A DNA stretch of 64,000 nucleotides from Schmidtea polychroa. Its lineage: Eukaryota. Below are positions 28,377-60,620 of the stretch, piece after piece. The first letter of the stretch is position 1, and each line of letters starts with the position of its first letter. Position numbers and translations under genes: made by a program. The DNA lies in the NCBI GenBank assembly GCA_044892525.1, contig CM097888.1, positions 12,896,001 through 12,960,000 of the forward strand, written 5' to 3'. The notes below the pieces were generated by a model. That model saw nothing but the letters and a program-made list of their open reading frames with translations. It did no database searches and was not told where the DNA came from.

Positions 28377-30681
28377 AAGGTTGTAATAAAAAATATATAA
28401 TATTAAAACAATTTAAATTGTTTTAAAATGAGATACTTTATTTAACTTAAATAAATAATATTTTTTATAGATTTTTAAAATGGAAAAAGATTCAAAAATT
28501 TGTCATAATAATATAATTTAAAATTAAATTTAACAAGTATGAAATTGTAAAATTTTCTTGTACATAACACAATTATCTTAAAAGTTATATTAGTTTCTAA
28601 ATAGTTTGAACAACATATATATTTTTTCAATCATAAATATAAATGCCTATCACAAATACTTAAAATCCAATATTTTGAAATTCAATATTATATGACGGTA
28701 TTTATATAATTTGAAAATATCTAACTGAATTGTAACACAAATCTAATTTTTTATTAAATTATTAATTTTAATTAAAGCTTTTCTATGAGGAAAATATTAA
28801 TTTTAAAAATTATTTTAAATAAGCTTATGCAAATAAGTATTTTGTTCTCAATGTTAGATTTGTGGCGGTCTGAATTGGCTCAGGATTTCAAGTGGTATTG
28901 CTGGATATATCGTCTTAATTGAAACTTACCAATTTATAAAACAATAATTCTCAACCGTTTTTTGATAACGATACCTTTTTAATAATTTAGAAATATTAAA
29001 TAATTTTAAATTAAAATATTTTAAAATCTCCTTTTAACACATAGATTTGCAACAAATTAAAAATAATTTATTATTTAAATTTTAATTTTCAAAAAATATT
29101 TTTTAGTATAAAAAATTTATATTTTATAAATTTGCTTAAAAATCTGTATTTTCTATAATTATTCTATCCTACTTGACAATGACGGGAAAATTGCAAAAAT
29201 ATTTGAGTGGCGCTTTCTTATAATTAAACTATTGCCACGTATATTTAATTCTTGATTTATTGTTTAGTTAATTATTAGTATTTTATCATATTACCTAAAC
29301 TATTATAACTATTAATCATTTTAGTTTGATAATATATATTTTTTGATTTGTTTTATATTTATCATTTTTTTGAAATAATTGATGACACCATTTATTAATT
29401 TTTCTTAATGTTGGTGCTTAGGGGGTGTGTCATATAAATATTCAAGGGTTGTTTATGGATTTGGAATCGACTCTTTCCTAAACTCTTTCATTATTATTTT
29501 ACTTTATACCATCTGCGTATCCATGGCAACAACCATGTTGGTAATGTACACAGTGGCTGAAAATCAATGAGCAGATGAACTCTAATACTAGAACTACTCC
29601 TCATTGTATTTTCATTTTCGAGTTCTGGACTGCCTATAGAAGGTCTTACGTCACTGTTCATTATCTCTCTTTTCTTAGATGTGGCAAATATGTGCAGAGA
29701 GTACGGTGTCTGGTGCGAGTTGAACAAGGTTCGTTACGGAAAACCCGTTGTGTAATAGAAATAACTGCTCTGTCTGGAGGTTGAGTAAGAGTGATCAGAG
29801 TCATAGTGTGAGAACAGTGTTTAAAAAACGTGTACGTTAGAAGGAGGTGTATGAAGATAATTGTCGACTTTACGGTGAAAAAAACTGTTTTTGATATTGT
29901 TGGGTACGTTTGCAGAGGAAATGTTACGGAAAGAGTCGTTATCCCTTTTATGACTTTCGTAATATTTGAAAATTAATATTTGATAATAATACTTGATAAT
30001 ATTTAATATAATATGAAACTTGATAAAAATATTATTACAAAACTCTTTTTATAATATTTGTTAATGTTTAATATAATATTCGATACAATATTTAACTAAA
30101 ACTTTAAATTGTATATATTTGATAGAGTGCAATTAGATGAAATAAGGAATGCAAACAATTTAATAAAACTTACTTCAGCCAGGAACACTTCTGATACCAT
30201 TGTCGTGGTGGAGCTACCCGCACAGCAAGCTAATAATCGGACAAATAGATTAATTGAAAGTTCCACATAGTATAATCCAATTAAAAATTTCGAAAAATAA
30301 ATTTTCATATTTATTTGCGATTGTATTGTTGGGCTGAGTCGAAGGGTAGTTGGGAAATTAGGGCAAACTTAACTAAAATAAAATAAAAAATAAAAACAAA
30401 TAAATTGACAAATAAAATAGAATAAAACATAAGAAAAACAATAATTAGAAAATAGGAATTAAAACAAAAAATATAAAGATGAGAAAAAATTAAAATAGGA
30501 CAATAGAATGGCGGAAAACAACGTAAAATATAGTAAATAATAAGAAAATTAAGGAAAATAAATAAAAACATAATTTTAATAAAGAAAGTAAGAAGAAATA
30601 ACTAAAAACAAGGAAAATAAATTAAATTAATAAAATTAAGCGGTACTCAATTCTAATTGGTCCGCGCAAACAAAAAATTAA

Positions 30682-30791
30682 TATATAAGCAGGCATTAAA
30701 AACATAACAATTACTGTTAATCAAACCACCTCAATAGGTAAGTGAAATTTAAACAAGACTACTGTTAATCAAACAACCTCAATAGGTAAAT
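30682..30791 (+). promoter_or_regulatory. Candidate LTR core promoter and 5' splice donors
   Basis: TATATAAG at 30682; a 30-bp direct repeat (48-bp period, 30712 and 30760) whose copies end in AG|GTAAGT (30738) and AG|GTAAAT (30786); a further G|GTAAGG at 30953. Confidence 0.5.
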
Positions 30792-33191
30792 CTATTCTAC
30801 GACAGAACAGAACTCCAGCAACTAACGCACGATAACTCACGAGGACAATTCCAAGATTCAAGAGATTTTTACAGAACCAGACGATATTCGAGCATTAACT
30901 GATTCGACATAGTACCCTTTTCGACTCAGCCCATACTTGTAGCAATCCTTCGGTAAGGATTTTTGATTGCTTATTTTGAATTTTTAAGTAATGCGTATAG
31001 TTTAATAATATTTTTAATTTAAAAACTGGTTTTTCTTTTCGTTTGATTTTCGAATGCTTTACTTAAATTAATAATTTGCTTAATAATAAATGAATTAAGA
31101 ATTATTGATCTTTTATGAATTAATTTTTATGAATTATTATTGGAGACTATTCAATTTTGCGAGAAACGTGGCGTTGAGATACTCTATGTCATGGTGTGAG
31201 GTGCCTTCGGGAGCTCCACCGGTGGACATAGGGTATTTCAATCACGCAGCTAGATTGGGCCGAAATGTGAGGGCTTCTTCACGGGTCCAATTGCTGAAGG
31301 TGCGACTAAAATCTATAGGTAAATGGTGGCAGAAAATTGATAGTCATGTAGTGATTGAAAACAAAGATATGTAAGAAAGGAATCGGAGAATTTCGATGTA
31401 TTCGCGCAGTGATTGAGGGTGTCACACTATCGTTTTCGACTGCCGTTTTTGCTAAGCTTAAATTTTTCTCCATCATCAATGTAAGTTGTGCGTCAAAAAG
31501 TGTTCAAACCTTAGTGAGGCTATCTGTGACCTATCTTCGATGTTCATACTTTTCACTTAAGATCTGTTTCGACCAATTGTTAGTCTAAGACCTTTTGAAC
31601 TGGTATTCCGTTCATCTAAAAGTTCTCTTAAAGACATAGTTGCAAGGGAGTTCAAAGTAGATTGCTTCAGACAAGTATTAGGATTACTCGAAATGACTGT
31701 TTGTAAATAAATGGTAGAACCATGTAAAATGATTTAATCCAAAAAGTTATTCAGAATTGCATAAAACGAGTTTGTTCCAAATAAAAGCTTAAATTACATA
31801 AAATGATTCGCTATCATAAATTTTTAGAATTCTATATAAAAGGATTTACATACAATTAATTATCATGATTACATAAACTATTGGCATCAAATAATTTAAA
31901 AATGAAAAATGCAACCAATTCGAGCCAAGAAAAATATATTTCTTCAAGTTAGCCGATGATCTTGTTAATTAAATAAAAAATTCCAGTATTTCATGGGGTT
32001 GGCAATCCAGCAGGGATAGGTAGAAATCCTCCAGCACTTAGAGAGTAGATCGATAAACTAGGTTTGAGGAATTAAAGACGAAAAATCCACCCTTGGAGCA
32101 AGCTATATCCAACGTTTGCAATACAGATAATTATAATTTTTCCAATAATCCGGTGAGAATTAGTAAACCATCATCATATGCAGTAGAATTGTGAGCGATT
32201 ACGCGGTAGATAAAATTCTGAGAGAATGCCATCATGCAAACATTTAACACCTACATTTGTAGTGACGAGTATAAATAAGCGTGTGACAGCGCAACTTGCA
32301 TGCGTCACCAGTTGCAGACATACCTAGTAGCCAAGTACAGTGGGCAAAGTCACACACGCATCTACTCCTGAAAAACCAGACCGAACACACCAGATGGAGT
32401 TTCTATTAACTAATTAAACTACCGACAGGTATCGGATTTCACCGCTCCGGATTAAATGTCAACCACCGGGCTGACATTTCCTTATCCACCTAGCAGGAAT
32501 GGTCGGCTACTAGCTCACATTGATACCGTGCTCAGTTATCATAAAGGCAAAGTCTTTTAACGCTAAACCCGATCATAATCATGATTATTCTCTCTTTATT
32601 ATCTTAGCATGAATGGCATAGAAATTATTTCATTTTTTGACATAATTGTCATTAACATTAATATCGAATATTATTAAACAAATATTATTTAAACCGGGTA
32701 AAACACATATGCGAGTAATTTGAGAGAACGAATAAATAATTAAAAATTTAAATAACCTTCCGTTTATCCTGTAGGAACTAATCAACAGACATTATGGACC
32801 CCCTTTTCCATAGATAGTCACTCGACCCCAGTATATGATACACTCATCAAAATCACTCGTTCGGGGGGGGGAAGTCAACAATTCAACTCGATTCTCAATA
32901 AACGTGAAATAATGACTTCAAGCGGATTATATAAATAATCATTTTCATCGACCTAGAATTTCTCTCACTAATGGTAATATCTTCCTTTCCTTGTGCGAAA
33001 TGTGGTTTGAGCGATTTATCCTCTTACAGTTAAAGATCCAAAAGGTATGAGGATCCATCGTGCAGTAGAACTTGTCTTGACTAGTAAACCCATATTTTTG
33101 TCTATGATCAGTAAAGTCGGAATGTGGTCAGATGATGACACTCCCGTCGATTTAATTATTCTCATTTTCATTTTTTCCACAGTCACTCAAA

Positions 33192-33941
33192 ATGTTGCCA
33201 AATTCCAAGACCGTTCTTCGACCTTGTTTTTCTTGCTCCGACAAGAATTCAATTATCAAGGAGCTCCAGGCCCAGATCGGAAAGCACAAAAGAAAGATAG
33301 ATGAGTTAGAGGGGACATGGTTTAGTCCCACCCAGATGAAGGAGGTTCAGAAGAAGCTGCACCGAAGCGAGTACTGTAGAGACGCGTTGATTTCCGAGAG
33401 TCGGGCGCAGAGGAGCCTGATAAAAGAGCAATCGGAGGCGCTGCACAAATTATACGTCCAGGCAGCAACTACAAGGAAGATCGCGAAGATCCCAATTAAT
33501 GAAGCCAGTAATCTTTTCCCAGCGCATCATGATATCTCTGGCGGATCTTCTTCTCCAGTCGGAAAGTCCTGCCATGGGTGCGTAGAGACCGAGCTCTCAC
33601 CTAAAGAACCAGAAATTATCTGTACCGGAACCAGTAAAGTGCTACCTGCGATAGCATCCACCTCCGCAGCACCCCCGACCAATCCAACGGCATCGAAGCC
33701 AAAACGTCGGCAATTATCGAGAGCCGAACGCAAAAAGAAACAGCGGGAACGCGTAACCGCCAAACAGAACCAGCAATCGTCGGATCATCCAATCAAAGTC
33801 ATCAACCCTCCTGCAGCAATTGATTTAGCATCAGTGATCTCAGGGCGAATCATCTCCGCCGCTGGTGTTACCTGGGAGGAAAACGCCTCTGAGTTTTTCG
33901 ATTTGGAAGATCTATTGGCAGACTCGGAGTGGGAGAAATGA
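33192..33941 (+). CDS. LTR-encoded 249-aa protein (CxxC, coiled coil, Arg/Lys-rich motif, acidic tail), function unknown
   Basis: Intact in both LTRs; GC-richer than its flanks; strong acceptor TTTTCATTTTTTCCACAG ends 9 nt before the ATG. Confidence 0.7.
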   Translation: MLPNSKTVLRPCFSCSDKNSIIKELQAQIGKHKRKIDELEGTWFSPTQMKEVQKKLHRSEYCRDALISESRAQRSLIKEQSEALHKLYVQAATTRKIAKIPINEASNLFPAHHDISGGSSSPVGKSCHGCVETELSPKEPEIICTGTSKVLPAIASTSAAPPTNPTASKPKRRQLSRAERKKKQRERVTAKQNQQSSDHPIKVINPPAAIDLASVISGRIISAAGVTWEENASEFFDLEDLLADSEWEK

Positions 33942-34075
33942 GAACTTCCCCGTAAAAAGTCTTCGTTCTCTGAATTGACCTGAACATTGTCTGATAACAT
34001 TTTACCTTGTCTCTTTTCCCGTTGTCGTGAACTTTATTGTATAGGTGTTAGATATATTTGTGTGATAATCTTAAT

Positions 34076-34115
34076 AATAAACCATTTTTGTCTGCATACG
34101 TTTTTTTTGTGTTCA
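34076..34115 (+). terminator. Candidate LTR polyadenylation signal
   Basis: AATAAA at 34076-34081 followed by a T/GT-rich tract, 135 nt after the LTR ORF stop. Confidence 0.5.
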
Positions 34116-34512
34116 TCTTAAGACAGTTGAGTTGAAATTGGTAAATGGTATTGAGAGTCATAAAATTATGAGGAGCATTAGTCAGTTGGTAAACTCAGCT
34201 AGAAATATTGCGATGGGGCGACGGAATGAGTAGACGTAAGTCCTTCTATCGGCAGTCAGGGTTGGGAAGTCGAGGCCTCAGTAAGGAGTAGTCCGAAGGA
34301 GCTGGCTCACCTGCTTACTGGCGTCTCGCCGGCATAGCACAGTTCCAACGTGAAGCAATTCACGGGTGCTATGTTGGAGTGTAAGTTATGTACGGGTCCC
34401 GCTCGGCGATGACCAAATAAATGACGGGCGAAATCGAGGTGGGCATTCATCCTCTAGACTAAAGCTGCACTAGAAAGGGGTCATCCGAGTAGTGTACCCG
34501 CAACATAATTTT

Positions 34513-34832: not shown

Positions 34833-35318
34833 ATGACGGAATTCGTGGACCCGATACAACAACTAATCAACTTCATAAACATCGAGAATGACTCCCTTAA
34901 AACGCTGACACAAAAAAGAGAAAGAATTAACATCATACTACTTCAAGCAATCGGGCAAACACCAGCCGTCCCCAACCACATGTTATTAGCCACAGGACTA
35001 AGTCACCCAGAGGGGAAGGTAAACCCGGAAACCGTGTATCAATGGTATCAAGAGAGATTGAACCACCCAGCATTAAATCTTGATTATCAACGTATAAAAG
35101 ATCCACTAAATACCATATCAGATACAATCGAGCGGAAAATACAAGAAAAACTGACTCTACTACGAACTTGTCGTGCTTGTAAACTTCGTCCTATTCGCGT
35201 ACTGTTTTTGCCGTGTGGACACCTCAGTCACTGCGAAGAATGTGTGAACGATTTAAAACGATGTACGATATGTAGGCATGAAATAAAAGAAACTCATATG
35301 GTTTATTATGGTGAATAA
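34833..35318 (+). CDS. 161-aa protein with C-terminal IAP/MDM2-type RING finger (putative E3 ligase)
   Basis: CRAC..RPIRVLFLPCGHLSHCEEC...LKRCTICR.EI at the extreme C-terminus; first ATG at 34833 follows a T-tract TAG acceptor. Confidence 0.85.
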   Translation: MTEFVDPIQQLINFINIENDSLKTLTQKRERINIILLQAIGQTPAVPNHMLLATGLSHPEGKVNPETVYQWYQERLNHPALNLDYQRIKDPLNTISDTIERKIQEKLTLLRTCRACKLRPIRVLFLPCGHLSHCEECVNDLKRCTICRHEIKETHMVYYGE

Positions 35319-40500: not shown

Positions 40501-43500
40501 CAGACGAACCCCATGGGAAAGAGTGTGGAATGCAGAAAATAAGGAATGGGAAATCCGGAAAGGAATCTTCGTAGAAACAGACATTGGTGAGACAGAAAGT
40601 GAATCGGAGGAAGAAGAAGAGGAACCTCCAGAATATGAAGAGGAAGCAAGGGGACAGACATCAGATGACGAAAGCGAGACGGATGTCACATCAGAAAGCG
40701 AAAATGAAGCGAGACATATTCATGCAATGAGGAAAAAGGAACGTGAATATGCTGATATGGACGGCGAGGAAGCGACGGAAGCAAGAGAACGAGAAGAGAC
40801 AGAAAGATATAAACAATTAGGCGATATCTTAGCAATGGGAGCGAAAAATCAAAAACGCCAAGTAGTAGCGTTGGCTAACATCATCTTAAAGACATCAGAG
40901 AACATCCACAATCTGAGAGGAATGGCAAAGGCAATAGAGGAATACCGGCAATATAATGAATGGTATCCAGAACAGCTAGAACAAATTATTCGAAAATGGA
41001 GAAATCAGGAATGGGCACAAGACACTCAGGAGAGGTATCACATCCGAATCAAGTATCCGGACAAGAGCATCGAGGAACTAGAGGTGCATCCAACAACAAA
41101 GATTAGAGAATTAAAAAAGAAATTAGCATATGAAACTCCATTCCATCTGCAACTATTCGGAAAATCACTAGACGATAATGCAGACGTCGGAATAACACCC
41201 ATGAGATTGGAAGAGACAAATGTGTTAACAATGGCAGAAACGTTGGGAAAGCCGTTAAAAAGGAAAAGTAAAATTACTAAACTAACAAAAGGCAGTTTGA
41301 GTACTCCAAGTTCGAACAAAGCACCAAGTAAATCTAATGAAACTGAAGAAGTTGAAGAGATAATCCTGGAAGATAGTGACGATGAACCAGGAGAAAGATC
41401 ACCGCTATTAGTAAGATGGCCGACAGGAGCCGAAATGTGGACTAATAACCAGCCATCAACGAGTTATCAACAACCAACGAAACTAAACATCAAAGAAATC
41501 ATCGACAATACTACGGAAACCGAAACGGATGAACAATTCCAGAAGCAAAGAGAACCAACGAAAGTAACACCAGAAGGTCAAACCGATAAAATAATAGATG
41601 AATGGAATGAGTGGCTAAGAAATAACGATAGCTCATTACCCAGAACGGATAACGAAAGAAATCCGAATTACGAAAATACCAGAGAAGCCGGAACGATGAT
41701 GGAAAAACGGGCAAAAGGAAGACCTAAGAAACAAGGAGAAAAGTCTGAGTTCAAAACCAAAGAACAATTAAAGCAAGAACAAGGGCAAGTTCGATTAGAA
41801 AAATTGGATAAAATAGTATGGGATCTAAAGGAAGCCCAACCAACGATCGAAAGAGGAGAAAAATGGATACGAGAATTGATCAAAGATATGTTAATAATAA
41901 CAAACCCACAACTTAGACGTTTGTGGCAACGGAAAGTAGCCAGTACGGAAGCTAGACAATTATGGCACATCGTTTCGGGGATAATCCCAAAGTTAATCAA
42001 AGAGAAAACGAAAACCACCAAAACGGATTGGGATGAAACGAAGAGAGTGATTGAACTGCTCACGACAAATGCAAATGATGACGAACATCATCTAGTGGTA
42101 ATCACGTATTTGATGTATAATTTGATGGGACTAGCTGCGAGGAAAATACCAAATAAACAATTTGCAAATCATGTGGAAATGACCGTTTCAATCATAGAGA
42201 ATACTATTGAACCACATATTATTCGTGCCGGAGGATGGAAAAGACTTATACAAGCGCCACGAAAAAATGAGCAAGAAAGGTCGATGCAAGTTAGATTGAA
42301 GAAGTTGTTGAATGAACTAGAATGGGAACTACCCATGAAAGACCCAGCAAGCCGAAAAGCATCGATAAATTCGTTAATGATGACTATGATGATATGGATG
42401 TTGTGCACAAGTGGAGCAACAGGTTTTACCATCTACGATTGTGATAATATGATAATGAGAGATAAATACTCGTTGAGAGACATAGAAGAATGCAGACAAG
42501 CATCACCCAACAAATTAGACATAGTAAGAACAAAAGTTACTTACCATGTATATCAAGAATCAGATTTCATCAGAACGCAAGCAAGGGAATGCGTGGTATC
42601 AAAAAAGGTACTCGCATATTACTGTGGACAATATTCGTATTCGACTCTTATACTACCTGGTCTGGATAAAGAAATCGTATCAATACAACGAGAGGACTGT
42701 AAAGAGCTATTTAGAACCGGAGCGCTAAAAATGCATAACGGAGTGACGATTCACGGACAAACTGGAATGATTAAAACCGAAAGCGTTTACGTATCCGGAA
42801 AAGTAAAATCATCAGATGGGTCATGTAACGGAGGTACGTATACGATCCGAGGCGAAGTAATATCGGGGGTAGTAGTGATTGAGTCCTATACGGTTGAACT
42901 AAAGGAATACGAAGCGCAATTTGACGCAAATAATTACCAAATGAAGACCAACCTAGCGTGTAGAGCTACAGAAAACGTATGTAGGACAGGAGTATCAACT
43001 ATAATCTATGAAGCTAATAATCAAAAATGCCGACTCCAACTGTTAAAAAGTGCTTTGTTCAATGAAGTAAAAGGAGAAATATATGAGAACGAGAACGACG
43101 AGGATGGAAACGACAGAGTGAGAATGCGAAATGGAAAACCAATGCCACCATCTCCCAGAGAAAAGAGACTTTCAACGCAGAAGACACCAACAGCATTAAT
43201 CACAGACGATCCAGATCTAGGTATGAGATTTATCAAAGAGAAAGAAACCACCAAATGTGACAGTATAGTATATAAAACCAATTACGCAGGCATCTATATG
43301 TCGAGACAAATAATCGATAGAGCAGTGGGAAAGATAGCAACGGAGGACGTAAAACTATACTTATATGCAAATAATAAAATGGATTTTCTATTTCATCGCG
43401 GACAAACGACCTTGCAAAAAGTATATTACGATCTGATACAAAACGATTGTTCATTGAATAAAGAAATATTGAAAACAAAGCTAGCTATTGCGATAACGCA

Positions 43501-46500
43501 CCCAGATAACACGATGCCATCACTCCCATTACCGGATGGACATTTTGGTAGAATGGTAGGAGAAGTAATGTACACATACCAGTGTACCAAGACGTATGCA
43601 CGAATGCCAGAAAAATCTATACTACCCGAAAAGAGATGTGCAAATGAATTAGAAATCCGTTATAAGGGACAAAATCGATTCGTCCAACCAGTCACTAGAA
43701 TTATGAATCCAGTGGGTTTCTACCCAAATCTCTTTAACTGTTCTAATGCATACGGACCTTTGTATGAAAGGCCCAATGGGAAATGGATGATGTTACCGGG
43801 AAAAACCATATCCGAGGAACCCAAGAAATTTGGATTAATAGAACTTGCCACAGAGCTAGATTTCAAACCTATAGACGTGTCAAACGGTGGTATGTATTCC
43901 CCAGAAGATCTAGAAACAGCACGACTTAACGTACTCTTCCCAGCCAGACGAGAATCCATTTTGTCAAATATGGTTACAATAACGGGGGGAACAAATTATC
44001 AATCAGGCCCGAACTACGAACTGCTACTATCGCCAGACCATTTTCAACAAGCCACATCAAACATGATGAAAGCAATGTGGGGAAGATTCTTAGTTTTTGG
44101 ACAAATGATGGCCGGGATATTAGGGATCATACTCATAATTCAGATAGTCAGAGTAATACTAACACAAATGTTAGCGTGTTTTGATATATACAAGCGGGAA
44201 AAGAAAGTAAATTGGAAAATGATAGTAGGCTTTCTACCATTTTTAGCTAAAACCATGGTATTACATGGTCACTCAAAAGACATTCATCGGATAAAGCGAT
44301 TGATTAAAATATTAACAAAGATTAAAGGAACCGACGAAGAAGTAGGCAGACGATTCCGGAAAGTAATGTACGATGAAGCAACAAGACGACAATTGAAAAA
44401 GAATAAGCCAAAATTTTTGGACCGATTTAGAAGTCAATCATCTAACAGCGATAGTGACGACGATGATAACGGGAACGATAAATGTCTATATCCAACCAGA
44501 AACCCAAACGAAAAACCAATGGAAACAGCACCATATTGGGAAAAGGAAAAGACAAACACCTGGATCGCCAATGGAAGCTATATACCACCGGATATCGTGG
44601 GACCACAAGCAGCTTTGACCATGACACAAAATATGTATCCGCAATTACCGAGTCAACCCGGCATGCATTATATGCCAACACGACGTACCAAAAGTGTAGA
44701 TCAAGCAGATGACGTAAGAACAATAGCAGCGATGAGTCTACCTGGAGGTCCAGCAGTAACAGTTATGATTCAAATCAATGGTAAAGAAACCAATGCTATG
44801 ATAGACACAGGAGCTAATGTATCAGCGATAGCGATTAATCAAATTCCCAGTAAACACTGGAAAGATATGGAATCCACAACAATTCACATCATAGCATGTA
44901 GTAAAGAAACAGTGGACGTGGTCGGAAGATGGTGGACTACTTTGAGATACCAGGACAACGAAATTGAAACGTATTTGGCAGTAATACCAAAACTTAGCGT
45001 ACCATGCATAATCGGAACGGATTTGATGCCAGAATTGTTAAAAGAAGTCGTAATTGACTTAACAACCATGTGTTTAAAAGACAAAACCGGTAGAATATGC
45101 AAAATGAATGCAGTCATCAGATGTCCAGAAAAAATAATAGTACCAGCAAAATCGCAGATGATTTGTCAGATAAAAGTGGATACGGGTATGGAAGGAGAAG
45201 TTATCTTTGAACCAAGCAAGTCATTTGAAAAGCGACGAGAATTACCACTCGCAAGAGAAATAATCACAATAAACCAAGAAGGAGTGATACCGCTCAACAT
45301 CACGAATTTCGAAGAGGAAGACAAAATCATTTATGAGAACGAAAAATTGGGAAGATTGACCCCAATGATGGACATAGAATTACCGAAAATGACCAACGAG
45401 ATGAGCAAAGATGATGAATTATGGACAATAGATAGTATGTTGTTGACGAATGATGAAAAGAAAAAATTGCACCGATTGTTGGTAGAATATAAAGATATAT
45501 TCGCCATCTCAGATTTAGACTTGGGTACATGCGATGTTACCCTACATGCAATACCCCTCATAGATGAAACTCCAATTGCATTAAGACCATACAAGCTAGC
45601 AGAAATGCAAAAAGAAATAGCCGAAGCAGAAGTACAAAAGATGCTGGACGCAAAAGTAATCGAACCGAGTTGCTCACCCTGGCAATTCCCAGTGGTCATG
45701 GTAAAAAAGAAAGATGGCACCCAACGATTCTGTATCGATTATCGGAAGTTAAACGCAGTAACCAAGAGAGATATCTATCCATTGCCGGACATCAATGAGA
45801 TGTTATTGATGTTGCAAGGGGCAGCATATTTTACTTCTTTAGACCTAAAAAGTGGATACTGGCAGATTAAAGTCAAGGATGAGGACAAAGAGAAAACAGC
45901 TTTCACGTTGGGACGAGATCTATATCAATTCAGGAAAATGCCATTCGGACTAACCAACGCACCAGCATCATTTCAACGATGTATGAACTTTGTCACTCAT
46001 GGAATCAAACAATGTATGGTATATATTGATGATTTACTAATCTATTCAGCGACATTTGAACAACATCTGGAAGATATCCGAAACGTATTTATTAGATTAA
46101 GACAGTGGAAACTCAAACTCAAACCATCAAAATGCGATTGGGCAAAGGAAAAAGTCACGTTTTTGGGACACATAGTGTCAGCTAAAGGAAAGGAGCCAGA
46201 TCCAAGAAACATTGAGAAAATAAAAACATGTCCAGCACCGAAAACTGTCACCCAAGTTCAGGAATTTCTAGGATTATGCGGATACTATCGCAAATTTATC
46301 AAAAATTATGCAGGAATTGCAAAACCAATCCAGGAATTAGTAAAGAAGGATATTTCGTTCATTTGGGAAAAAGAACAACAACAGGCGTTCGAAACGCTGA
46401 GAGACAAACTAATCGAAGCACCAATACTGGTACACCCAGATTTCAAGAAGCCATTTCTATTGGCAACGGATGCAAGCGGGTACGCGGCAGGCGCGATTCT

Positions 46501-49500: not shown

Positions 49501-51427
49501 AATACTAGCTGCAAAAGAGAATAGAGCAATAACGATCATGAGAATCCTTGGGGAGATGGGCGAGGAAACCAACACGAAAAATGAACAAGGTGAAACCGCC
49601 ATGATGTATGCAGCTATAACGAAAATACACCCAAAAACACTCCACATCCTACATCAATCAGGATCGAAACTAGACGAAAGGTCCAATGAAGGAAATTCCA
49701 CCTTGGACTGGGCAACCATACAGCCAAACTTAGAAATGATCAGATTTATTTGCAAAAATGCGACAAAGGAAGAAGTTGAAAATATGTGCAAAGACACATC
49801 TCAGTTTCAATGGAATACGATACGGAAAAATCTAGAAGCAATGAAATTATTATTAACATGGAGGGTACCACAAAATAATAAATATGCGATAAATGTAAAC
49901 GAATTCTACGAAAACGGAGAAAATGCGATAGTAAAGAATACCCTAACTAAGGGGGGGACGCCTAAAATTATTTTAATAGTATTAAATAGAGAAGACCTAA
50001 AATTCACGCAAAATCAGAACGAGCAACAACGAATTGGGAAACATCGTCGTATGCAATTGAGAGAGTTAGTTAAAGAATGGAATAGAAAGAGACATGCTGC
50101 AACGGGTAGAAAAGAGTTTGAATTCGAAGCAAAATTAGCAAGAAACAGAGTGCTAACAGCATATCGCAGATTATTGAACGATATAAATGTCGAGGACGAC
50201 ATTTTAAACGACAGCGGGGGAGATAAAAACGATGACAATGACGGAAAAGGCCGAAAGGAGGATAAAGGGAAAAGAGAACCGGAAGAGGATAAACCGGAAA
50301 ACAAGGATTTGGATACGAAAAGAGAGGGAAACAGGCCGGGAACCAAGACCAAAGAGGAGGAAAAACCGAATAATGGAAAACAGAGGGTATGCCTACCTTT
50401 CACTAACAAAGAAATAGAGACAAATATGATATTAATGATAATTATGCTTACCATGATAGAGTTAGTAACAGCTCATGGAGGGACGAGAACGATAAAAGAA
50501 ACCAAAGAAGCGGAGAATCAAGATAGCAAAGAGGATGAACTAAAACAAGAAAAGAAAAAGCAAGCACAAGAGCAGCAGTGGGATTTGAAGGAAGAATGGG
50601 ACTTAAAGGAAAGGTGCATACTAGGAAGATGCATGTCTAGAGCGTATCAGAAACTAGTACTGATAAATGAGGACACAGAACCAATAACAGAAGTAAGAAT
50701 ACAAGAAGCATACCGAAATCGAGACGGGAAGAGAATAACGAACGTTAAAGGAAAAGAGGTACACCTAGGAAAAGGTGGTGAAGTAGTAATAACGCAGCTC
50801 CAACCTAGAAAAGAGCACAAAGTCTGTATTTCAAGATTAGGACCAGGTGAGAGATGCCATCAATATGTGACGCAGCAGCAGCCGCCGAAAGAATACACGG
50901 TTTGTATCTGGAGGAACGAATCAAAAAGAGAATGCCGACGATACCCGGGGAAAAGAGGAAAGAAAAGAAAAAACCACGACGAAAAGAACGAAGGAGGAAA
51001 GCACAAGAAAACCGGTGAGGAAGCTCAGGACAACTATGTTTCGGAGGAAGAGATGGAAAAAATACAAAAGATGGCAAAGGAGGGTATGAACGAGGAAATA
51101 GCAAGAATACGGGAAATGATGAAAGGAAATGGCAAAAGAGGAAACGAGCAAGGTACAGAAGCGATATCAACATTAACGAACAAGGAGAAACCAGAGAATA
51201 TAAGCGTGAAGCAGATGATGTGGATCAGTGGGATAATAATAACAGGGGCCTTCCTAATCATAACAGGGGGAACAATAAAAATAATTAAAGATAAACGACA
51301 TCGCGGAGAACTAGAGATGACCCGAATCAGAAATTTCCAACATCGAGTGAAACGACCAAGTGATATCAAACAAGAACAGTGGGTGGAGGCCTGGAACGCT
51401 CAGCGCCCTCCAAACTCACGTATATAG
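37574..51427 (+). CDS. 4617-aa Gag-UBL-Bcl2-like-Env-PR-RT-RH-IN-ankyrin polyprotein
   Basis: Single stop-free ORF. Capsid-like N-terminus, three CCHC knuckles (38327-38479), DTG (44804), LDLKSGYWQI/MPFGLTNAP/YIDD (46022), TDAS RNase H (46469), HHCC and D-D-E integrase, GPY motif. Confidence 0.97.
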   Translation: MTNVVKTDEYKEKFRGEPFNGNANKLATFITNFEVYITVCGWTPEAISKRMPLFLCDSALEVYLEAKERDTKLEKWEDIKTFLKKTFGASKPINQALGELANRKQRANESITLYASELRRLAKKAMNGKLPEENLIGYFIEGLRREEVRASVGCQMCKTLEEAIDWATRCELHLPAQMNIMQEEGRIMTAIAKADNGDNNNQEPKMNQFIPGAHQIFKPPQGRSNGNNGNRNNPNNENNFNNRRNMNDNKQCRTCGKPGHWDRDCYRNSNCNRCGRRGHTENVCQLRGCFNCGQPGHISRDCRERGQQQRPPQRNNNYMANPQRQSNPSEGKQMNVMQEISQMKQMMQQMMRPRPESAPQQTQNIRMMRSTENLNNYEVHQHVQEWQRLQAEEERIKQERNQQRQEQPLRINMMKLVKDMKSQYCYNYGKNPRVVPMTEPEKVTETTTEMKTENSTTILKGNQRIQKIFWKKIKDKIEKEHNKAKAETEDENNKSKEQTSQLNHQMLQELESEETTIFERKKLKRVPRMRNLQINMMKRTKDVASSDEEEDYVSSLGGEILQLNEISEPPKGEIKEEESESEITSGSEDEDIEIKLRKAREEAIKQVAEILPAVVRNQEFIDVISFRRFVQKVMKLERNEKDLIPNEEKSIIKKYMEKMKQADTTRYVIKIGTSRGLERMWIKNTVTDELFDWIREHLGNSRKKEYLYQYQGEQIKPDMHLVDALIWPGETQILKLHKEKQPANLYDWAKDAKAEYDFNIKLKLEQIKQCTLRRNLDKLIKQIQEQVEDNWELLITRRAPAMYELMSRLRDTEMLRMSDWRTINLIHKYGRLKETQPQRLEITIWLPNEEKRRIKMSNRSTVDDLVSKINQEITEKVRSESSDGMVDDVVLMYDKIILRAEDDTSLSELGMWDNHQIIRIVPMDEFRTRDVIYQKEIRDRMKTLYQKSTEIIEIHQQWLKEKELQGKITKLSTRSCRRTPWERVWNAENKEWEIRKGIFVETDIGETESESEEEEEEPPEYEEEARGQTSDDESETDVTSESENEARHIHAMRKKEREYADMDGEEATEAREREETERYKQLGDILAMGAKNQKRQVVALANIILKTSENIHNLRGMAKAIEEYRQYNEWYPEQLEQIIRKWRNQEWAQDTQERYHIRIKYPDKSIEELEVHPTTKIRELKKKLAYETPFHLQLFGKSLDDNADVGITPMRLEETNVLTMAETLGKPLKRKSKITKLTKGSLSTPSSNKAPSKSNETEEVEEIILEDSDDEPGERSPLLVRWPTGAEMWTNNQPSTSYQQPTKLNIKEIIDNTTETETDEQFQKQREPTKVTPEGQTDKIIDEWNEWLRNNDSSLPRTDNERNPNYENTREAGTMMEKRAKGRPKKQGEKSEFKTKEQLKQEQGQVRLEKLDKIVWDLKEAQPTIERGEKWIRELIKDMLIITNPQLRRLWQRKVASTEARQLWHIVSGIIPKLIKEKTKTTKTDWDETKRVIELLTTNANDDEHHLVVITYLMYNLMGLAARKIPNKQFANHVEMTVSIIENTIEPHIIRAGGWKRLIQAPRKNEQERSMQVRLKKLLNELEWELPMKDPASRKASINSLMMTMMIWMLCTSGATGFTIYDCDNMIMRDKYSLRDIEECRQASPNKLDIVRTKVTYHVYQESDFIRTQARECVVSKKVLAYYCGQYSYSTLILPGLDKEIVSIQREDCKELFRTGALKMHNGVTIHGQTGMIKTESVYVSGKVKSSDGSCNGGTYTIRGEVISGVVVIESYTVELKEYEAQFDANNYQMKTNLACRATENVCRTGVSTIIYEANNQKCRLQLLKSALFNEVKGEIYENENDEDGNDRVRMRNGKPMPPSPREKRLSTQKTPTALITDDPDLGMRFIKEKETTKCDSIVYKTNYAGIYMSRQIIDRAVGKIATEDVKLYLYANNKMDFLFHRGQTTLQKVYYDLIQNDCSLNKEILKTKLAIAITHPDNTMPSLPLPDGHFGRMVGEVMYTYQCTKTYARMPEKSILPEKRCANELEIRYKGQNRFVQPVTRIMNPVGFYPNLFNCSNAYGPLYERPNGKWMMLPGKTISEEPKKFGLIELATELDFKPIDVSNGGMYSPEDLETARLNVLFPARRESILSNMVTITGGTNYQSGPNYELLLSPDHFQQATSNMMKAMWGRFLVFGQMMAGILGIILIIQIVRVILTQMLACFDIYKREKKVNWKMIVGFLPFLAKTMVLHGHSKDIHRIKRLIKILTKIKGTDEEVGRRFRKVMYDEATRRQLKKNKPKFLDRFRSQSSNSDSDDDDNGNDKCLYPTRNPNEKPMETAPYWEKEKTNTWIANGSYIPPDIVGPQAALTMTQNMYPQLPSQPGMHYMPTRRTKSVDQADDVRTIAAMSLPGGPAVTVMIQINGKETNAMIDTGANVSAIAINQIPSKHWKDMESTTIHIIACSKETVDVVGRWWTTLRYQDNEIETYLAVIPKLSVPCIIGTDLMPELLKEVVIDLTTMCLKDKTGRICKMNAVIRCPEKIIVPAKSQMICQIKVDTGMEGEVIFEPSKSFEKRRELPLAREIITINQEGVIPLNITNFEEEDKIIYENEKLGRLTPMMDIELPKMTNEMSKDDELWTIDSMLLTNDEKKKLHRLLVEYKDIFAISDLDLGTCDVTLHAIPLIDETPIALRPYKLAEMQKEIAEAEVQKMLDAKVIEPSCSPWQFPVVMVKKKDGTQRFCIDYRKLNAVTKRDIYPLPDINEMLLMLQGAAYFTSLDLKSGYWQIKVKDEDKEKTAFTLGRDLYQFRKMPFGLTNAPASFQRCMNFVTHGIKQCMVYIDDLLIYSATFEQHLEDIRNVFIRLRQWKLKLKPSKCDWAKEKVTFLGHIVSAKGKEPDPRNIEKIKTCPAPKTVTQVQEFLGLCGYYRKFIKNYAGIAKPIQELVKKDISFIWEKEQQQAFETLRDKLIEAPILVHPDFKKPFLLATDASGYAAGAILGQLDDEGKERVIGYYSRTFKKHEKNYSVTEREALAIIQAIKHFRYLLWGHEICITTDHQPLVWLGQHKEASSRLMRWAMQLKEYSPFIKFKAGRANANADCMSRFIFPDLVDSEMQRICLIVAEDLDFCQLRKDQQEDAELKQIIDYVKTGKTDVYAKDQKLKEHMDKHRHRYIIEKDWLLIMDGEKRLMCIPENRRKELLTQYHDGRLGGHMSSKKTLARMKQKYFWPTLTEDVTEWVKNCLTCATRKNTGSKWKAPLTPMPVPIEPMTMISMDVVGPLPESDKGNVYILVITDFLTKFPEAFAMPDQKAKTIAKILVEEICCRYGTPKQILTDQGTNFMSEIMSEVTNYFKIAKLRTSPYHPQTNGMTERFNGTLIQMLSNYVDRHQRDWDEYINLCLMAYRMSIHASTKMSPFKLMYGRECNMPMDLEYQPPISQYMEIDDYVTKFKERMQEIWETAGLNIKFYQESYKDLHDRKKNVKQHTFQTGDWVMIETPELIPGTTKKLQRNGKGPYEILFVGETNVRVKLVNNPFTRPIYVNVARCKSIPKTATSQPEGRTLTTRSQTYRMNMMQQLAEPITGRLGIQPSEAEKIVKEVKIKIPGWAKDRLDFEILGGLLTMIENYANRERTHPLLRVVKSQWPILFTITDHYGDTPLHKLMKVGNNEQILETIEAFHDCKRSTEQTNNQGYTPLMIAANRGKTKDIITALLDTGSKITTQDHERKNALHHAIEGRSTEAFTSLMELLSYEDNREVGNMYDGLLTAIKEKLTTITGILITWRNPIQNDYMINVNEAFTRGENTLMREAMKGHHLFEIPNQLLERGIKFTNHKDEQLTKKRIDTFEKSLFQFTNQVRNKYWETVSVLYMMDTMNNIRENYLDIIQILTAEERINNPNGKKTKIRYEKSRESKSTTNQTVTNNVIETKSMSIDQEAIIRKAKEVFFEEMLELPDEIILSKIIKAVHTYARDQTTGLDIGKIKTFLPRAFTMVTKDSRTPLQQAILAAKENRAITIMRILGEMGEETNTKNEQGETAMMYAAITKIHPKTLHILHQSGSKLDERSNEGNSTLDWATIQPNLEMIRFICKNATKEEVENMCKDTSQFQWNTIRKNLEAMKLLLTWRVPQNNKYAINVNEFYENGENAIVKNTLTKGGTPKIILIVLNREDLKFTQNQNEQQRIGKHRRMQLRELVKEWNRKRHAATGRKEFEFEAKLARNRVLTAYRRLLNDINVEDDILNDSGGDKNDDNDGKGRKEDKGKREPEEDKPENKDLDTKREGNRPGTKTKEEEKPNNGKQRVCLPFTNKEIETNMILMIIMLTMIELVTAHGGTRTIKETKEAENQDSKEDELKQEKKKQAQEQQWDLKEEWDLKERCILGRCMSRAYQKLVLINEDTEPITEVRIQEAYRNRDGKRITNVKGKEVHLGKGGEVVITQLQPRKEHKVCISRLGPGERCHQYVTQQQPPKEYTVCIWRNESKRECRRYPGKRGKKRKNHDEKNEGGKHKKTGEEAQDNYVSEEEMEKIQKMAKEGMNEEIARIREMMKGNGKRGNEQGTEAISTLTNKEKPENISVKQMMWISGIIITGAFLIITGGTIKIIKDKRHRGELEMTRIRNFQHRVKRPSDIKQEQWVEAWNAQRPPNSRI
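39566..41239 (+). other. Three ubiquitin/SUMO-like domains in the polyprotein (about 39566-39784, 40088-40339, 41033-41239)
   Basis: The third reads HIRIKYPDKSIEELEVHPTTKIRELKKKL...LQLFGKSLDD (ubiquitin LEV.P..TI..K.K..L.F.GK.L.D). The first has YQYQGEQI (SUMO F.F.G..I). The second has TVDDL..KI..LMY...L..D.SLSELG. Confidence 0.6.
41858..42257 (+). other. Bcl-2-like domain in the polyprotein
   Basis: IEPHIIRAGGWKRL matches the Bcl-xL BH2 motif LEPWIQENGGWDTF; 53-residue gap-free register back to the BH1 position (DEHHLV for NWGRIV). Confidence 0.6.
42377..44182 (+). other. Envelope glycoprotein domain, chuvirus/class III fusogen-like, with internal signal peptide and TM anchor
   Basis: Signal MMTMMIWMLCTSGATG|FTIYDC; YSL.DIEEC, ECVV..YYCG, C.....TG, DGSC.GG.Y, CR.....C; TM WGRFLVFGQMMAGILGIILII. 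The pattern matches remembered Jingchuvirales G proteins. Confidence 0.8.
48449..49765 (+). other. Two ankyrin-repeat clusters after integrase (48449-48740, 49475-49765)
   Basis: YGDTPLH, QGYTPLMIAA, RKNALHHA; SRTPLQQA, QGETAMMYAA, EGNSTLDWA. Confidence 0.85.
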
Positions 51428-52032: not shown

Positions 52033-53421
52033 ATGGATAAACGACAAAGAGAAGAGTTCAGAGAGATTGTCGAGCAAGTCCGAAAATCTACAACGATCAG
52101 AATACACAAACATGTTATGTGCGGAATCTGTGAAAAGTTACTAAAAGAACCCCACCAAACCCAATGTGGATGCAGAGTATGTAAAGAATGTATCAGTGAA
52201 GCAATAAAGAATAGACCACAGAGGTGCCCGGTGTGTAAAGAGACACTAATATCGAGTTTAGAAGACACTAACGAGGATAAAGCCGCAGTGAAAGACATGT
52301 TAAACACCAACCTGGGATGCAAAAATGCCCCATGCGAATGGAAAGGAGTAATATGGAAGGTAGTACAACATATGGGAGAATGTATGTACAGAATTGGCCA
52401 GTGTGAAAGGTGCCATAAAACCATTCGAGCAAGCGAAGAAAAAGAGCATCAAAGGCAGTGTGAAGAGAGATTGGAAAGATGTGAACACTGTGGAGAAATA
52501 GATACGTGGAAAAATCTCACCCTCAAACATCACAATGTCCAAGAGGAGAGAGTATGTGCAGAGTTCAGTGGGGAATGCCCAAACGGATGTAACCAAGGGG
52601 AAATAATGAAGGTGGCACAGCATCTAAGGGAATGCGAAAAGAAAAGAATGACATGTGTACTAGGTAGATGGGGTTGTCAGAAACTACTACACCGAGGTGA
52701 GTTACCACATCATTTAGTAGAAAATGCTTCAACCCACGCAGAAATGTGGTCGACTGCGTTACAAGAAAGCGAAGAGAAAGTAAAACAAATGGAGATAGAG
52801 ATAACATCGTTGAAAGTGTTAGTCAAAGAACTACTAGAAGAAAGGGAAGCGTTCGAAGAAGCCCGAGCAAACATAAAGATGCAAATAAACCGAATAGAAA
52901 TCAGTAATAATCAGGCCAAGGAGCTACATCAGAAAATACGGGAAATAAATCTAAATGAGATAACCCCAACAGCACCCTACATATGGAAAATAACGGGAGT
53001 AAAAGAAAGAATACGAAAAGCAAAAACCGGAGAAGAGACAAGAATAACAAGTCCTGCATTCCATTCTTGGAAAAATGGGTACAAAATGAAAATGAAGATA
53101 TATCCCAACGGGGACGGAACCGGATTAGATACGCACTTTTCGATTTTCTTTCTGTTATGTAAAGGGGAATACGACGAAATAATAGAGTGGCCGTTCCAGG
53201 CAAAAATCGATATTGCACTAATGAATGACCGAAGCATCCACGAACAAAGCTTCAAGACAACTGGAAACCAAATGTGTTACCAGAGACCTACGGCAGAAGA
53301 AGGATCAGCAACAGGAGCACCTACGTTCATCCTACAACAAAAAGTAGAAGATATGGCAAGAAATGACACGGTGTATATCAAGATGACCGTGAGGAAAGAG
53401 GAGAAGGGTAGAACGGAGTAA
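52033..53421 (+). CDS. Full-length intronless TRAF-family protein (RING, TRAF zinc fingers, coiled coil, MATH), 462 aa
   Basis: CGIC..LL.EP.QTQCGCRVC..C..CPVC; C.N..C.WKG...H..EC; YIWKI, SPAF...GYKM...YPNGDG.G..TH.S.F..L..GEYD....WPF. Confidence 0.93.
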   Translation: MDKRQREEFREIVEQVRKSTTIRIHKHVMCGICEKLLKEPHQTQCGCRVCKECISEAIKNRPQRCPVCKETLISSLEDTNEDKAAVKDMLNTNLGCKNAPCEWKGVIWKVVQHMGECMYRIGQCERCHKTIRASEEKEHQRQCEERLERCEHCGEIDTWKNLTLKHHNVQEERVCAEFSGECPNGCNQGEIMKVAQHLRECEKKRMTCVLGRWGCQKLLHRGELPHHLVENASTHAEMWSTALQESEEKVKQMEIEITSLKVLVKELLEEREAFEEARANIKMQINRIEISNNQAKELHQKIREINLNEITPTAPYIWKITGVKERIRKAKTGEETRITSPAFHSWKNGYKMKMKIYPNGDGTGLDTHFSIFFLLCKGEYDEIIEWPFQAKIDIALMNDRSIHEQSFKTTGNQMCYQRPTAEEGSATGAPTFILQQKVEDMARNDTVYIKMTVRKEEKGRTE

Positions 53422-54670: not shown

Positions 54671-54783
54671 GGGTGAATAAAAAGATAAAAACAAAAATCG
54701 GGACGTATATCCCAAACAAAAAAATTAAAGTATTGTAAAAGTATTCAAGGGACTGTAACCCGAACTATTAAAATTTTATATAA

Positions 54784-56156: not shown

Positions 56157-59100
56157 CCAATCCAGCCGAATTCTAACAATCAGACCTATCTCAACATCAA
56201 TACCCGAACCAACCAACAACCGCCAGCAGAAGCATCAAATGGTTAGCAGTTCATAAACTCTAACTCAAACATTGGTGTTATCATATGCAGAAACTTTTAT
56301 TGTATATACAAACTATCACCTTAAGTGATACTTGCTTGGTCTTGATTTGACCTATATCTTAGAATAAAATTGTTTTTGTTATTGTAGTATAATTGTTTCG
56401 ATATATCCTTTTTATGAATGCATGAAGTAAGATAACTATGCAATTGCGGGACGCAATTTTGATGGGTCCCCGAGTGATTTGTTGGGCTGAGTCGAAGGGT
56501 AGTTGGGAAATTAGGGCAAACTTAACTAAAATAAAATAAAAAATAAAAACAAATAAATTGACAAATAAAATAGAATAAAACATAAGAAAAACAATAATTA
56601 GAAAATAGGAATTAAAACAAAAAATATAAAGATGAGAAAAAATTAAAATAGGACAATAGAATGGCGGAAAACAACGTAAAATATAGTAAATAATAAGAAA
56701 ATTAAGGAAAATAAATAAAAACATAATTTTAATAAAGAAAGTAAGAAGAAATAACTAAAAACAAGGAAAATAAATTAAATTAATAAAATTAAGCGGTACT
56801 CAATTCTAATTGGTCCGCGCAAACAAAAAATTAATATATAAGCAGGCATTAAAAACATAACAATTACTGTTAATCAAACCACCTCAATAGGTAAGTGAAA
56901 TTTAAACAAGACTACTGTTAATCAAACCACCTCAATAGGTAAATCTATTCTACGACAGAACAGAACTCCAGCAACTAACGCACGATAACTCACGAGGACA
57001 ATTCCAAGATTCAAGAGATTTTTACAGAACCAGACGATATTCGAGCATTAACTGATTCGACATAGTACCCTTTTCGACTCAGCCCATACTTGTAGCAATC
57101 CTTCGGTAAGGATTTTTGATTGCTTATTTTGAATTTTTAAGTAATGCGTATAGTTTAATAATATTTTTAATTTAAAAACTGGTTTTTCTTTTCGTTTGAT
57201 TTTCGAATGCTTTACTTAAATTAATAATTTGCTTAATAATAAATGATTTGCTCGTTAAGAATTATTGATCTTTTATGAATTAATTTTTATGAATTATTAT
57301 TGGAGACTATTCAATTTTGCGAGAAACGTGGCGTTGAGATACTCTATGTCATGGTGTGAGGTGCCTTCGGGAGCTCCACCGGTGGACATAGGGTATTTCA
57401 ATCACGCAGCTAGATTGGGCCGAAATGTGAGGGCTTCTTCACGGGTCCAATTGCTGAAGGTGCGACTAAAATCTATAGGTAAATGGTGGCAGAAAATTGA
57501 TAGTCATGTAGTGATTGAAAACAAAGATATGTAAGAAAGGAATCGGAGAATTTCGATGTATTCGCGCAGTGATTGAGGGTGTCACACTATCGTTTTCGAC
57601 TGCCGTTTTTGCTAAGCTTAAATTTTTCTCCATCATCAATGTAAGTTGTGCGTCAAAAAGTGTTCAAACCTTAGTGAGGCTATCTGTGACCTATCTTCGA
57701 TGTTCATACTTTTCACTTAAGATCTGTTTCGACCAATTGTTAGTCTAAGACCTTTTGAACTGGTATTCCGTTCATCTAAAAGTTCTCTTAAAGACATAGT
57801 TGCAAGGGAGTTCAAAGTAGATTGCTTCAGACAAGTATTAGGATTACTCGAAATGACTGTTTGTAAATAAATGGTAGAACCATGTAAAATGATTTAATCC
57901 AAAAAGTTATTCAGAATTGCATAAAACGAGTTTGTTCCAAATAAAAGCTTAAATTACATAAAATGATTCGCTATCATAAATTTTTAGAATTCTATATAAA
58001 AGGATTTACATACAATTAATTATCATGATTACATAAACTATTGGCATCAAATAATTTAAAAATGAAAAATGCAACCAATTCGAGCCAAGAAAAATATATT
58101 TCTTCAAGTTAGCCGATGATCTTGTTAATTAAATAAAAAATTCCAGTATTTCATGGGGTTGGCAATCCAGCAGGGATAGGTAGAAATCCTCCAGCACTTA
58201 GAGAGTAGATCGATAAACTAGGTTTGAGGAATTAAAGACGAAAAATCCACCCTTGGAGCAAGCTATATCCAACGTTTGCAATACAGATAATTATAATTTT
58301 TCCAATAATCCGGTGAGAATTAGTAAACCATCATCATATGCAGTAGAATTGTGAGCGATTACGCGGTAGATAAAATTCTGAGAGAATGCCATCATGCAAA
58401 CATTTAACACCTACATTTGTAGTGACGAGTATAAATAAGCGTGTGACAGCGCAACTTGCATGCGTCACCAGTTGCAGACATACCTAGTAGCCAAGTACAG
58501 TGGGCAAAGTCACACACGCATCTACTCCTGAAAAACCAGACCGAACACACCAGATGGAGTTTCTATTAACTAATTAAACTACCGACAGGTATCGGATTTC
58601 ACCGCTCCGGATTAAATGTCAACCACCGGGCTGACATTTCCTTATCCACCTAGCAGGAATGGTCGGCTACTAGCTCACATTGATACCGTGCTCAGTTATC
58701 ATAAAGGCAAAGTCTTTTAACGCTAAACCCGATCATAATCATGATTATTCTCTCTTTATTATCTTAGCATGAATGGCATAGAAATTATTTCATTTTTTGA
58801 CATAATTGTCATTAACATTAATATCGAATATTATTAAACAAATATTATTTAAACCGGGTAAAACACATATGCGAGTAATTTGAGAGAACGAATAAATAAT
58901 TAAAAATTTAAATAACCTTCCGTTTATCCTGTAGGAACTAATCAACAGACATTATGGACCCCCTTTTCCATAGATAGTCACTCGACCCCAGTATATGATA
59001 CACTCATCAAAATCACTCGTTCGGGGGGGGGGAAGTCAACAATTCAACTCGATTCTCAATAAACGTGAAATAATGACTTCAAGCGGATTATATAAATAAT

Positions 59101-59352
59101 CATTTTCATCGACCTAGAATTTCTCTCACTAATGGTAATATCTTCCTTTCCTTGTGCGAAATGTGGTTTGAGCGATTTATCCTCTTACAGTTAAAGATCC
59201 AAAAGGTATGAGGATCCATCGTGCAGTAGAACTTGTCTTGACTAGTAAACCCATATTTTTGTCTATGATCAGTAAAGTCGGAATGTGGTCAGATGATGAC
59301 ACTCCCGTCGATTTAATTATTCTCATTTTCATTTTTTCCACAGTCACTCAAA

Positions 59353-60102: not shown

Positions 60103-60620
60103 GAACTTCCCCGTAAAAAGTCTTCGTTCTCTGAATTGACCTGAACATTGTCTGATAACATTTTACCTTGTCTCTTTTCCCGTTGTCGTGAACTTTATTG
60201 TATAGGTGTTAGATATATTTGTGTGATAATCTTAATAATAAACCATTTTTGTCTGCATACGTTTTTTTTGTGTTCATCTTAAGACAGTTGAGTTGAAATT
60301 GGTAAATGGTATTGAGAGTCATAAAATTATGAGGAGCATTAGTCAGTTGGTAAACTCAGCTAGAAATATTGCGATGGGGCGACGGAATGAGTAGACGTAA
60401 GTCCTTCTATCGGCAGTCAGGGTTGGGAAGTCGAGGCCTCAGTAAGGAGTAGTCCGAAGGAGCTGGCTCACCTGCTTACTGGCGTCTCGCCGGCATAGCA
60501 CAGTTCCAACGTGAAGCAATTCACGGGTGCTATGTTGGAGTGTAAGTTATGTACGGGTCCCGCTCGGCGATGACCAAATAAATGACGGGCGAAATTGAGG
60601 TGGGCATTCATCCTCTAGAC

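Follow-up and report, generated by a model that had tools for sequence, protein, structure and literature searches.

A conserved, diverged Bcl-2-like domain lies directly before the Env signal peptide in the giant polyprotein of a Burro-type retrotransposon in the 64,000-nucleotide stretch of Schmidtea polychroa DNA analysed here (the window). Signal peptidase cleavage at GATG|F would leave the signal helix as an ER tail on the Bcl-2 side, and the domain likely acts as a non-canonical modulator of survival or signalling and not as a classical BH3 trap, a reading to which we assign a probability of about one half. That a BCL2-like motif sits beside env in Burro elements is already in print: in Burro-2, -3 and -4 it is preceded by a Ubi/SUMO-like domain and followed by an in-frame env (Arkhipova and Yushenova 2019, PMC6431247). 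Since both the domain and its location ahead of env have been published, the feature itself is not new. The Burro section of PMC6431247 is silent on signal peptides, tail anchoring, a degenerate BH1 and selection, and our literature search, whose reach did not include Grohme 2018 and Lee 2026, found no paper tying Bcl-2 together with a signal peptide or tail anchor to a retrotransposon. The accessible parts of PMC8532177 and PMC13238120 add nothing on the Bcl-2 domain. The idea of the signal as anchor thus appears to be unpublished.

A Burro-type gypsy element with a giant polyprotein

The element occupies 30327-63266 on the forward strand, as do all features below unless noted, and measures 30.3 kb once an inserted transposon is subtracted. 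Its 5' LTR (30327..34505) begins with TG and ends with CA, and its 3' LTR (56480..63266) is split by a DNA transposon at 60621-63212. The LTRs are 4.18 kb long and 99.7% identical, and a GTAT target duplication stands just before the first and after the second. The inserted transposon, presumably hAT/Buster-like, is flanked by an 8-bp target duplication and carries a 512-aa ORF on the minus strand (61137-62675). Each LTR also contains a 249-aa ORF (33192-33941 and 59353-60102) with no useful Pfam match, the start of which has a look-alike at L120:661-1077. Just past the 5' LTR lies a primer-binding-site-like sequence (34513-34530), which we take to resemble the complement of the tRNA-Pro 3' end, and the leader holds 74-nt tandem repeats at 35882-36251.

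The polyprotein ORF (P0001; 37229..51427, first ATG at 37574) comprises 4,732 codons. It encodes, in order, Gag, CCHC knuckles, a ubiquitin-like domain (UBL), the Bcl-2 domain, Env, protease, RT, RNase H, integrase, ankyrin repeats, and a second signal peptide with a transmembrane segment (TM). The UBL, N-terminal to Bcl-2, is a weak Pfam stretch (41042..41146; PF00240, E 0.17). It is followed by a basic, AT-hook-like GRP motif (41705..41731) that aligns with RGRGRPRK of sister lineage B, where Pfam AT_hook matches weakly (E 0.066); P0003 and P0013 have a similar basic motif. Env is a Monjiviricetes-type fusion glycoprotein (42425..44263; PF24664, E 1.5e-70) in which hydropathy places a TM at 44105-44161 (aa 2293-2311) and a second hydrophobic stretch that reaches 44263. 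The giant ORF is flanked by a gene with a C-terminal RING finger (34833..35318; PF13920, E 8.3e-12), in which Pfam found no BIR domain, and by a TRAF-like gene (RING ... MATH; 52033..53421; PF21355, E 3.7e-26). Three more accessory ORFs lie within 53615-56156, two of them coiled-coil and one with signal-like and TM-like stretches, and none has a convincing Pfam match.

Judged by architecture against the published Burro description, this is a high-copy, ~30-kb Burro-type gypsy element: an LTR element with a giant ORF, env in frame between gag and pol, and BCL2, UBL, ankyrin and TRAF cargo. The planarian Burro / GYPSM1 elements, for which PMC6431247 cites Jurka 2007 and Grohme et al. 2018, share with it the ~30-kb size, the LTRs and a giant ORF with Gag, three CCHC knuckles, and Ubi/SUMO-like and BCL2-like domains. 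Further shared features are env in frame between BCL2 and protease, then RT, RNase H, integrase and ankyrin, as well as MATH/TRAF and RING modules. Unlike in Burro, the TRAF of the window element is a downstream accessory ORF and its RING ORF lacks a BIR, and its 4,732-codon frame compares with 4,873 and 5,140 codons (PMC6431247). Among 150 scored of 925 candidates in the genome, at least 150 copies of the Bcl-2 domain are 92-100% identical, and roughly 59 of these 150, counted by eye, lie inside 4,732-codon frames.

The Bcl-2 domain is recognised through its sister family

Taken alone, the window domain is barely visible to sequence searches. Pfam Bcl-2 touches aa 1622-1670 of the window row at E 0.093 (13.7 bits against a cut-off of 31.4), and single-sequence searches with the isolated domain returned no match in Pfam (searched as a fragment), the PDB sequences, the protein collection or the ESM Atlas. 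Its relatives are more telling. Pfam Bcl-2 matches six of the seven rows of our first alignment (A1; best E 4.2e-7), the window row being the exception. When family profiles were compared with PDB sequences, only Bcl-2 and Bcl-xL appeared among the best 60 of 125 and the best 60 of 132 matches, with best E values of 6.1e-5 and 7.4e-6, and the similarity to these chains covers helices a4-a8.

A profile of the core columns of the 15 non-window rows, built without the window row and without signal or Env columns, finds P0001 aa 1539-1675 (41843..42253; helices a1-a8 predicted) at 27.4 bits and nothing else in P0001 or P0002 above 1.3 bits. Against this profile, the isolated domain gives 34.5 bits. 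Shuffled versions reached at most 10.3 bits (987 of 1000 scored), or 13.6 bits when GGW was kept in place (999 of 1000), and the reversed sequence 2.2 bits. The likeness of the window domain to Bcl-2 in sequence therefore exceeds chance, and homology to the Bcl-2 family is supported by way of the sister family. The Bcl-2-like domain that the earlier note had proposed from the letters alone is in this way borne out by the sister lineages, the family profiles and the shuffle test.

The BH2-like motif IEPHIIRAGGW named in that note is present in frame at 42206-42238. Its GGW is invariant in all 16 aligned rows, and the first W of W...GGW is H in the window family. The note had also read DEHH (in frame at 42080) as a degenerate BH1. 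A degenerate BH1 is indeed there, but we dropped that register, as the alignment to NRDK, DRDV and NKEV of the sister lineages moves the slot one residue earlier, to DDEH in place of NWGR (42077..42088). An exact 53-residue spacing between BH1 and BH2 had been claimed as well. In the window, the D of DEHH and the W of GGW are 52 residues apart (53 inclusive), the same as from the N of NWGR to the W of GGW in the aligned PDB Bcl-2 chain; across the 16 rows, the figure varies by lineage (51, 52 or 53) and so provides no sharp test.

With the Bcl-2 family (PF00452), the window domain thus shares similarity over a4-a8, the BH2 GGW and a hydrophobic helix past BH2. It differs in being embedded in a polyprotein, in having no clear BH3 (LxxxGD was not seen on inspection of the aligned rows, a1-a3 being of low confidence in the structural model), and in its tail, which is predicted to be a cleaved signal peptide and lies 46 residues past BH2. 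Between BH2 and the signal lies a conserved amphipathic linker helix (42281..42325; model pLDDT <50) with few nonsynonymous changes. Its hydrophobic spacing is BH3-like and the G-D core is absent; a similar helix occurs in lineage B only. This linker helix might fold back onto the Bcl-2 domain.

Sister lineages keep the arrangement

Five sister lineages (B-F) in the same genome, found by a Pfam Bcl-2 genome search (150 scored of 909) and by Env-based searches, each carry a Bcl-2 domain directly before the Env signal, while their Env is only ~32-40% identical to that of the window. The order Bcl-2, signal, Env recurs in eight proteins from other assemblies (P0003-P0009 and P0018). Our A4 profile matched 18 proteins among 1.84 billion protein representatives: P0003, itself part of the query, seven with BH2, signal and Env start, one with BH2 and signal, one Gag-UBL-Bcl-2 piece, three fragments, and five stand-alone Bcl-2 proteins.

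One relative lacks the domain. P0002 is an intact 4,029-aa polyprotein that keeps signal and Env without any Bcl-2 domain, and it is sister to the Bcl-2-bearing P0007 in the unrooted Env tree (97/97). Most simply, its state would reflect loss of Bcl-2; since the RT/IN tree leaves the deep order unsettled, this gain-versus-loss reading rests on the unrooted Env tree. The retention of signal and Env in P0002 indicates that the Bcl-2 domain is dispensable and that the conserved job of the signal is Env.

P0002 also bears on the idea that the fold now serves the virus-like particle itself, linking Gag to membrane and Env as a matrix-like domain or scaffold and playing no part in cell death. The position between Gag and Env in one chain would suit such a domain, as would the loss of the BH1 W-G in all 16 aligned rows and the basic AT-hook-like motif that precedes it in lineages A and B, P0003 and P0013. 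Against a structural part of this kind stands the intact P0002 polyprotein that does without it. The element additionally has RING and TRAF genes, and the IAP of Burro1 is reported to protect planarian stem cells (Lee et al. 2026, as cited in PMC13465017). We regard a purely structural role as quite unlikely.

In the domain tree, 12 element domains fall on one side of a branch (89/93) and nine other Bcl-2 rows on the opposite side. Three of the nine, L036, L039 and L043 (labelled 'host'), belong to Maverick-like repeats. The same genome contains multi-copy stand-alone Bcl-2 genes that share kilobases of flank (L036-L041, L043-L050, L118-L121) and adjoin integrase-chromo and A32-like ATPase genes; one type apparently bears an intron. 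As judged from sequence, Maverick/Polinton-like elements are a second class of Bcl-2-carrying mobile element in this genome. Separately, seven near-identical Bcl-2 genes (L021-L027; G000:C4, 89.9-90.8 Mb) retain NWGR intact, show a clear BH3 and lack any tail past BH2.

Domain, linker and signal are under purifying selection

Seven diverged in-frame copies (L101, L109, L111-L114 and L116, of 22 loci examined, four partly frameshifted ones being omitted) differ from the window core by 4-17 nonsynonymous and 30-62 synonymous changes, a dN/dS of 0.02-0.04. In the same seven copies, the 30-codon linker shows 0-3 nonsynonymous against 9-14 synonymous changes, and the signal peptide 0-2 against 8-13. 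The pattern used to choose copies holds ten BH2 residues fixed and requires one silent change, which biases the core values slightly and those of linker and signal not at all. For 11 closer copies, dN/dS is 0.03-0.19. Among sister pairs, it is 0.11-0.24 for the core in the four of eight pairs with unsaturated dS, looser at 0.25-1.05 for the linker, and 0.05-0.44 for the signal. Within the window family, signal and linker hardly vary and are conserved at least as well as the Env N-terminus. These substitution patterns show strong purifying selection on the domain, its linker and the signal peptide. As DDEHH is kept in 40 of the 42 window-family copies examined and the core is so constrained, the odd BH1 is a selected and not a decayed feature.

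A decaying relic, or a helix bundle that resembles Bcl-2 by chance, could account for the weak single-sequence scores and for the window domain having the longest branch in the domain tree. It is refuted by the shuffle test and by the core dN/dS, and positional orthologues show clear BH1 and BH2; we find this explanation scarcely credible.

Fold searches lean towards the Bcl-2 family without a significant match

The earlier note had proposed structure prediction as the check on the fold, and the outcome was mixed. The AF2 model made with the 16-row alignment has a mean pLDDT of 48, with 60-73 in the a4-a8 core and <50 in a1-a3 and the tail; being built from the sister alignment, its agreement in fold is not independent of the sequence result. 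A single-sequence AF2 model (pLDDT 44) was unusable. In Foldseek, Bcl-xL fills the first nine rows at E 0.2-1.1, with no match at E<=0.001, and none at that level was found against viral models either. In VIA-align, the top eight rows are unrelated helical bundles with short three-helix matches. Bcl-2 family members make up 12 of the 50 rows and nine of the ten with at least 100 aligned residues (Z 7.1-7.7, rmsd 2.8-6.3). The closest whole-domain rows include KsBcl-2, BHRF1, ORFV125 and A179L (Z 7.2-7.7), and the predicted all-helical model aligns with Bcl-2 family structures, these four among them, over 106-123 residues. The fold searches favour the Bcl-2 family, but no match is significant (best E 0.2).

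The presence of KsBcl-2, BHRF1, ORFV125 and A179L among the closest structures invites the reading that the domain is a classical anti-apoptotic protein of the viral type, which binds the BH3 helices of host Bax-, Bak- or Bok-like proteins despite its altered BH1. Some viral Bcl-2s do bind BH3 with an altered BH1. In canonical Bcl-2 proteins, however, the BH1 W and G line the groove and the Arg pairs with the BH3 Asp. The BH1 W-G is absent in every aligned row, the canonical NWGR with it, and in the window family DDEH puts two acidic residues at W and G and removes the Arg too. With W, G and R all replaced, canonical BH3 capture is unlikely in the window family, and we consider a classical BH3 binder very doubtful. 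A complex prediction of the domain with a BH3-like 36-mer from L021 gave a score of 0.01; run without an alignment, it is not informative either way.

The Env signal peptide as candidate tail anchor

The internal Env signal peptide (42344..42424), the candidate Bcl-2 tail anchor, has a basic n-region in which two K/R precede the hydrophobic core, a 22-residue uncharged run, and A-T-G at -3 to -1. The fusion glycoprotein follows. The junction GATG|F (42413-42427) is in frame within the ORF 37229-51427, and its A and G at -3 and -1 accord with the -3/-1 rule for signal peptidase sites. Across 20 rows (13 plus 7), the residue at -1 is small in 18, and both positions fit in 17. Within the window family, position -2 varies (T, A or S) while the A at -3 is fixed in 40 of 40 in-frame copies, and in all rows the hydrophobic stretch ends three residues before a conserved YDC. 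The cleavage site predicted in the earlier note is thus backed by a conserved pattern, and signal peptidase likely cuts at GATG|F.

The signal seems to be read internally. In three of the 12 Bcl-2-bearing rows, no Met lies between BH2 and the h-region, which, barring a start supplied by splicing, leaves an internal signal. The linker Mets were rejected as Env start codons: those three rows lack them, and one of these Mets is a Leu or an Ala in diverged copies. RNA contigs of four runs contained no GT..AG joint leading into env, though contigs are unable to exclude splicing.

The earlier note had put about 45 residues between BH2 and the hydrophobic signal, and we measure 46 from the W. Among the elements, this distance is 23-57 residues, compared with 15-41 in four stand-alone Bcl-2 tails, and none of the element rows shows a further TM in the interval from BH2 to the signal helix. 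Linker length differs more than twofold among rows. Given a distance akin to that of stand-alone tails, the signal helix would occupy the slot of helix 9. The window helix is nevertheless the least hydrophobic of 13 rows (19-residue KD 1.15, versus 1.59-2.44 in the four stand-alone Bcl-2 tails) and is rich in Met, Thr, Ser and Cys, and the lineage B helix has a D and a K in its C-terminal half. In composition, these two helices resemble a disposable signal more closely than they do a stable anchor.

Two viral systems offer precedents. In rubella virus, the E2 signal peptide stays on the capsid, where it forms the hydrophobic C-terminus, and the capsid is anti-apoptotic; the E2 signal is needed for mitochondrial targeting of the capsid but not for the block of apoptosis (PMC3040668). 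The shared feature, here predicted, is a cytosolic polyprotein product that retains the signal of the next glycoprotein, although rubella capsid is not a Bcl-2 fold. In HCV, signal peptidase leaves the E1 signal as the ER anchor of core, and signal peptide peptidase then releases core (PMC5402940); the likeness, again at the level of prediction, is an upstream protein held at the ER by a glycoprotein signal. By analogy with such cases, it is plausible that one helix serves two functions, as Env signal and as Bcl-2 anchor.

The same precedents also suit a functional Bcl-2 that is anchored only briefly, with signal peptide peptidase or the element protease removing the helix and the domain acting in soluble form or within the particle. 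The weak, Met/Thr/Ser/Cys-rich helix and the charges in lineage B would fit, as would the release of HCV core and the rubella capsid that still blocked apoptosis without its E2 signal. Against brief anchoring stands the near-invariance of signal and linker in the window family, which is unusual for a disposable signal, together with the constraint on the signal in the sister pairs. On balance, we think brief anchoring somewhat unlikely.

A second internal signal-peptide-like stretch lies at 50426..50482 by hydropathy, and a TM follows at 51230-51286. This pair recurs at the polyprotein C-terminus in all five polyproteins checked (window, lineages B, C and E, and P0002). It may form a small type I membrane protein (50426-51286) and would tether the ankyrin region in the same manner. 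The recurrence of an internal signal at the C-terminus suggests that such a signal would tether whatever precedes it.

A proposed route to an ER-tethered Bcl-2 domain

In the tail-anchor reading that we prefer, Gag-UBL-Bcl-2 would stay cytosolic while the signal helix threads Env into the ER lumen. Env would halt at its TM, returning Pol to the cytosol, and signal peptidase cleavage would leave the N-terminal precursor (Gag-UBL-Bcl-2) tethered to the membrane through the signal helix. The element protease may then free a product of ~400 residues (about aa 1336-1732) that ends in Bcl-2 and its tail. A motif, [IMV][NHRAL][MIVAT]M, occurs 11 times in P0001 (aa 293, 449, 480, 526, 649, 1164, 1200, 1332, 2499, 3661 and 4406), several times at domain borders (before protease, after integrase and after the UBL) and never within 1336-1732. 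These are candidate protease sites, proposed from a recurrence counted without a chance control. Together with the RING, TRAF, UBL and ankyrin modules of the element, the domain would favour survival of the host cell or weaken the defence that it mounts.

A bolder version is that an ancestral element made a single capture of a host Bcl-2, whose own tail anchor then gave way to the Env signal. Each round of envelope synthesis would then deliver an ER-anchored, BH1-less Bcl-2 that protects the host cell, an arrangement kept in more than a dozen lineages. This history is possible, and we hold it tentatively, at less than even odds.

The window family lacks a BIR and yet holds its Bcl-2 domain under very tight constraint, so Bcl-2 could act as a second factor for survival. 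Should the signal peptide indeed be the anchor, it would represent a new way of building a tail-anchored Bcl-2 protein, one whose dose is tied to envelope synthesis.
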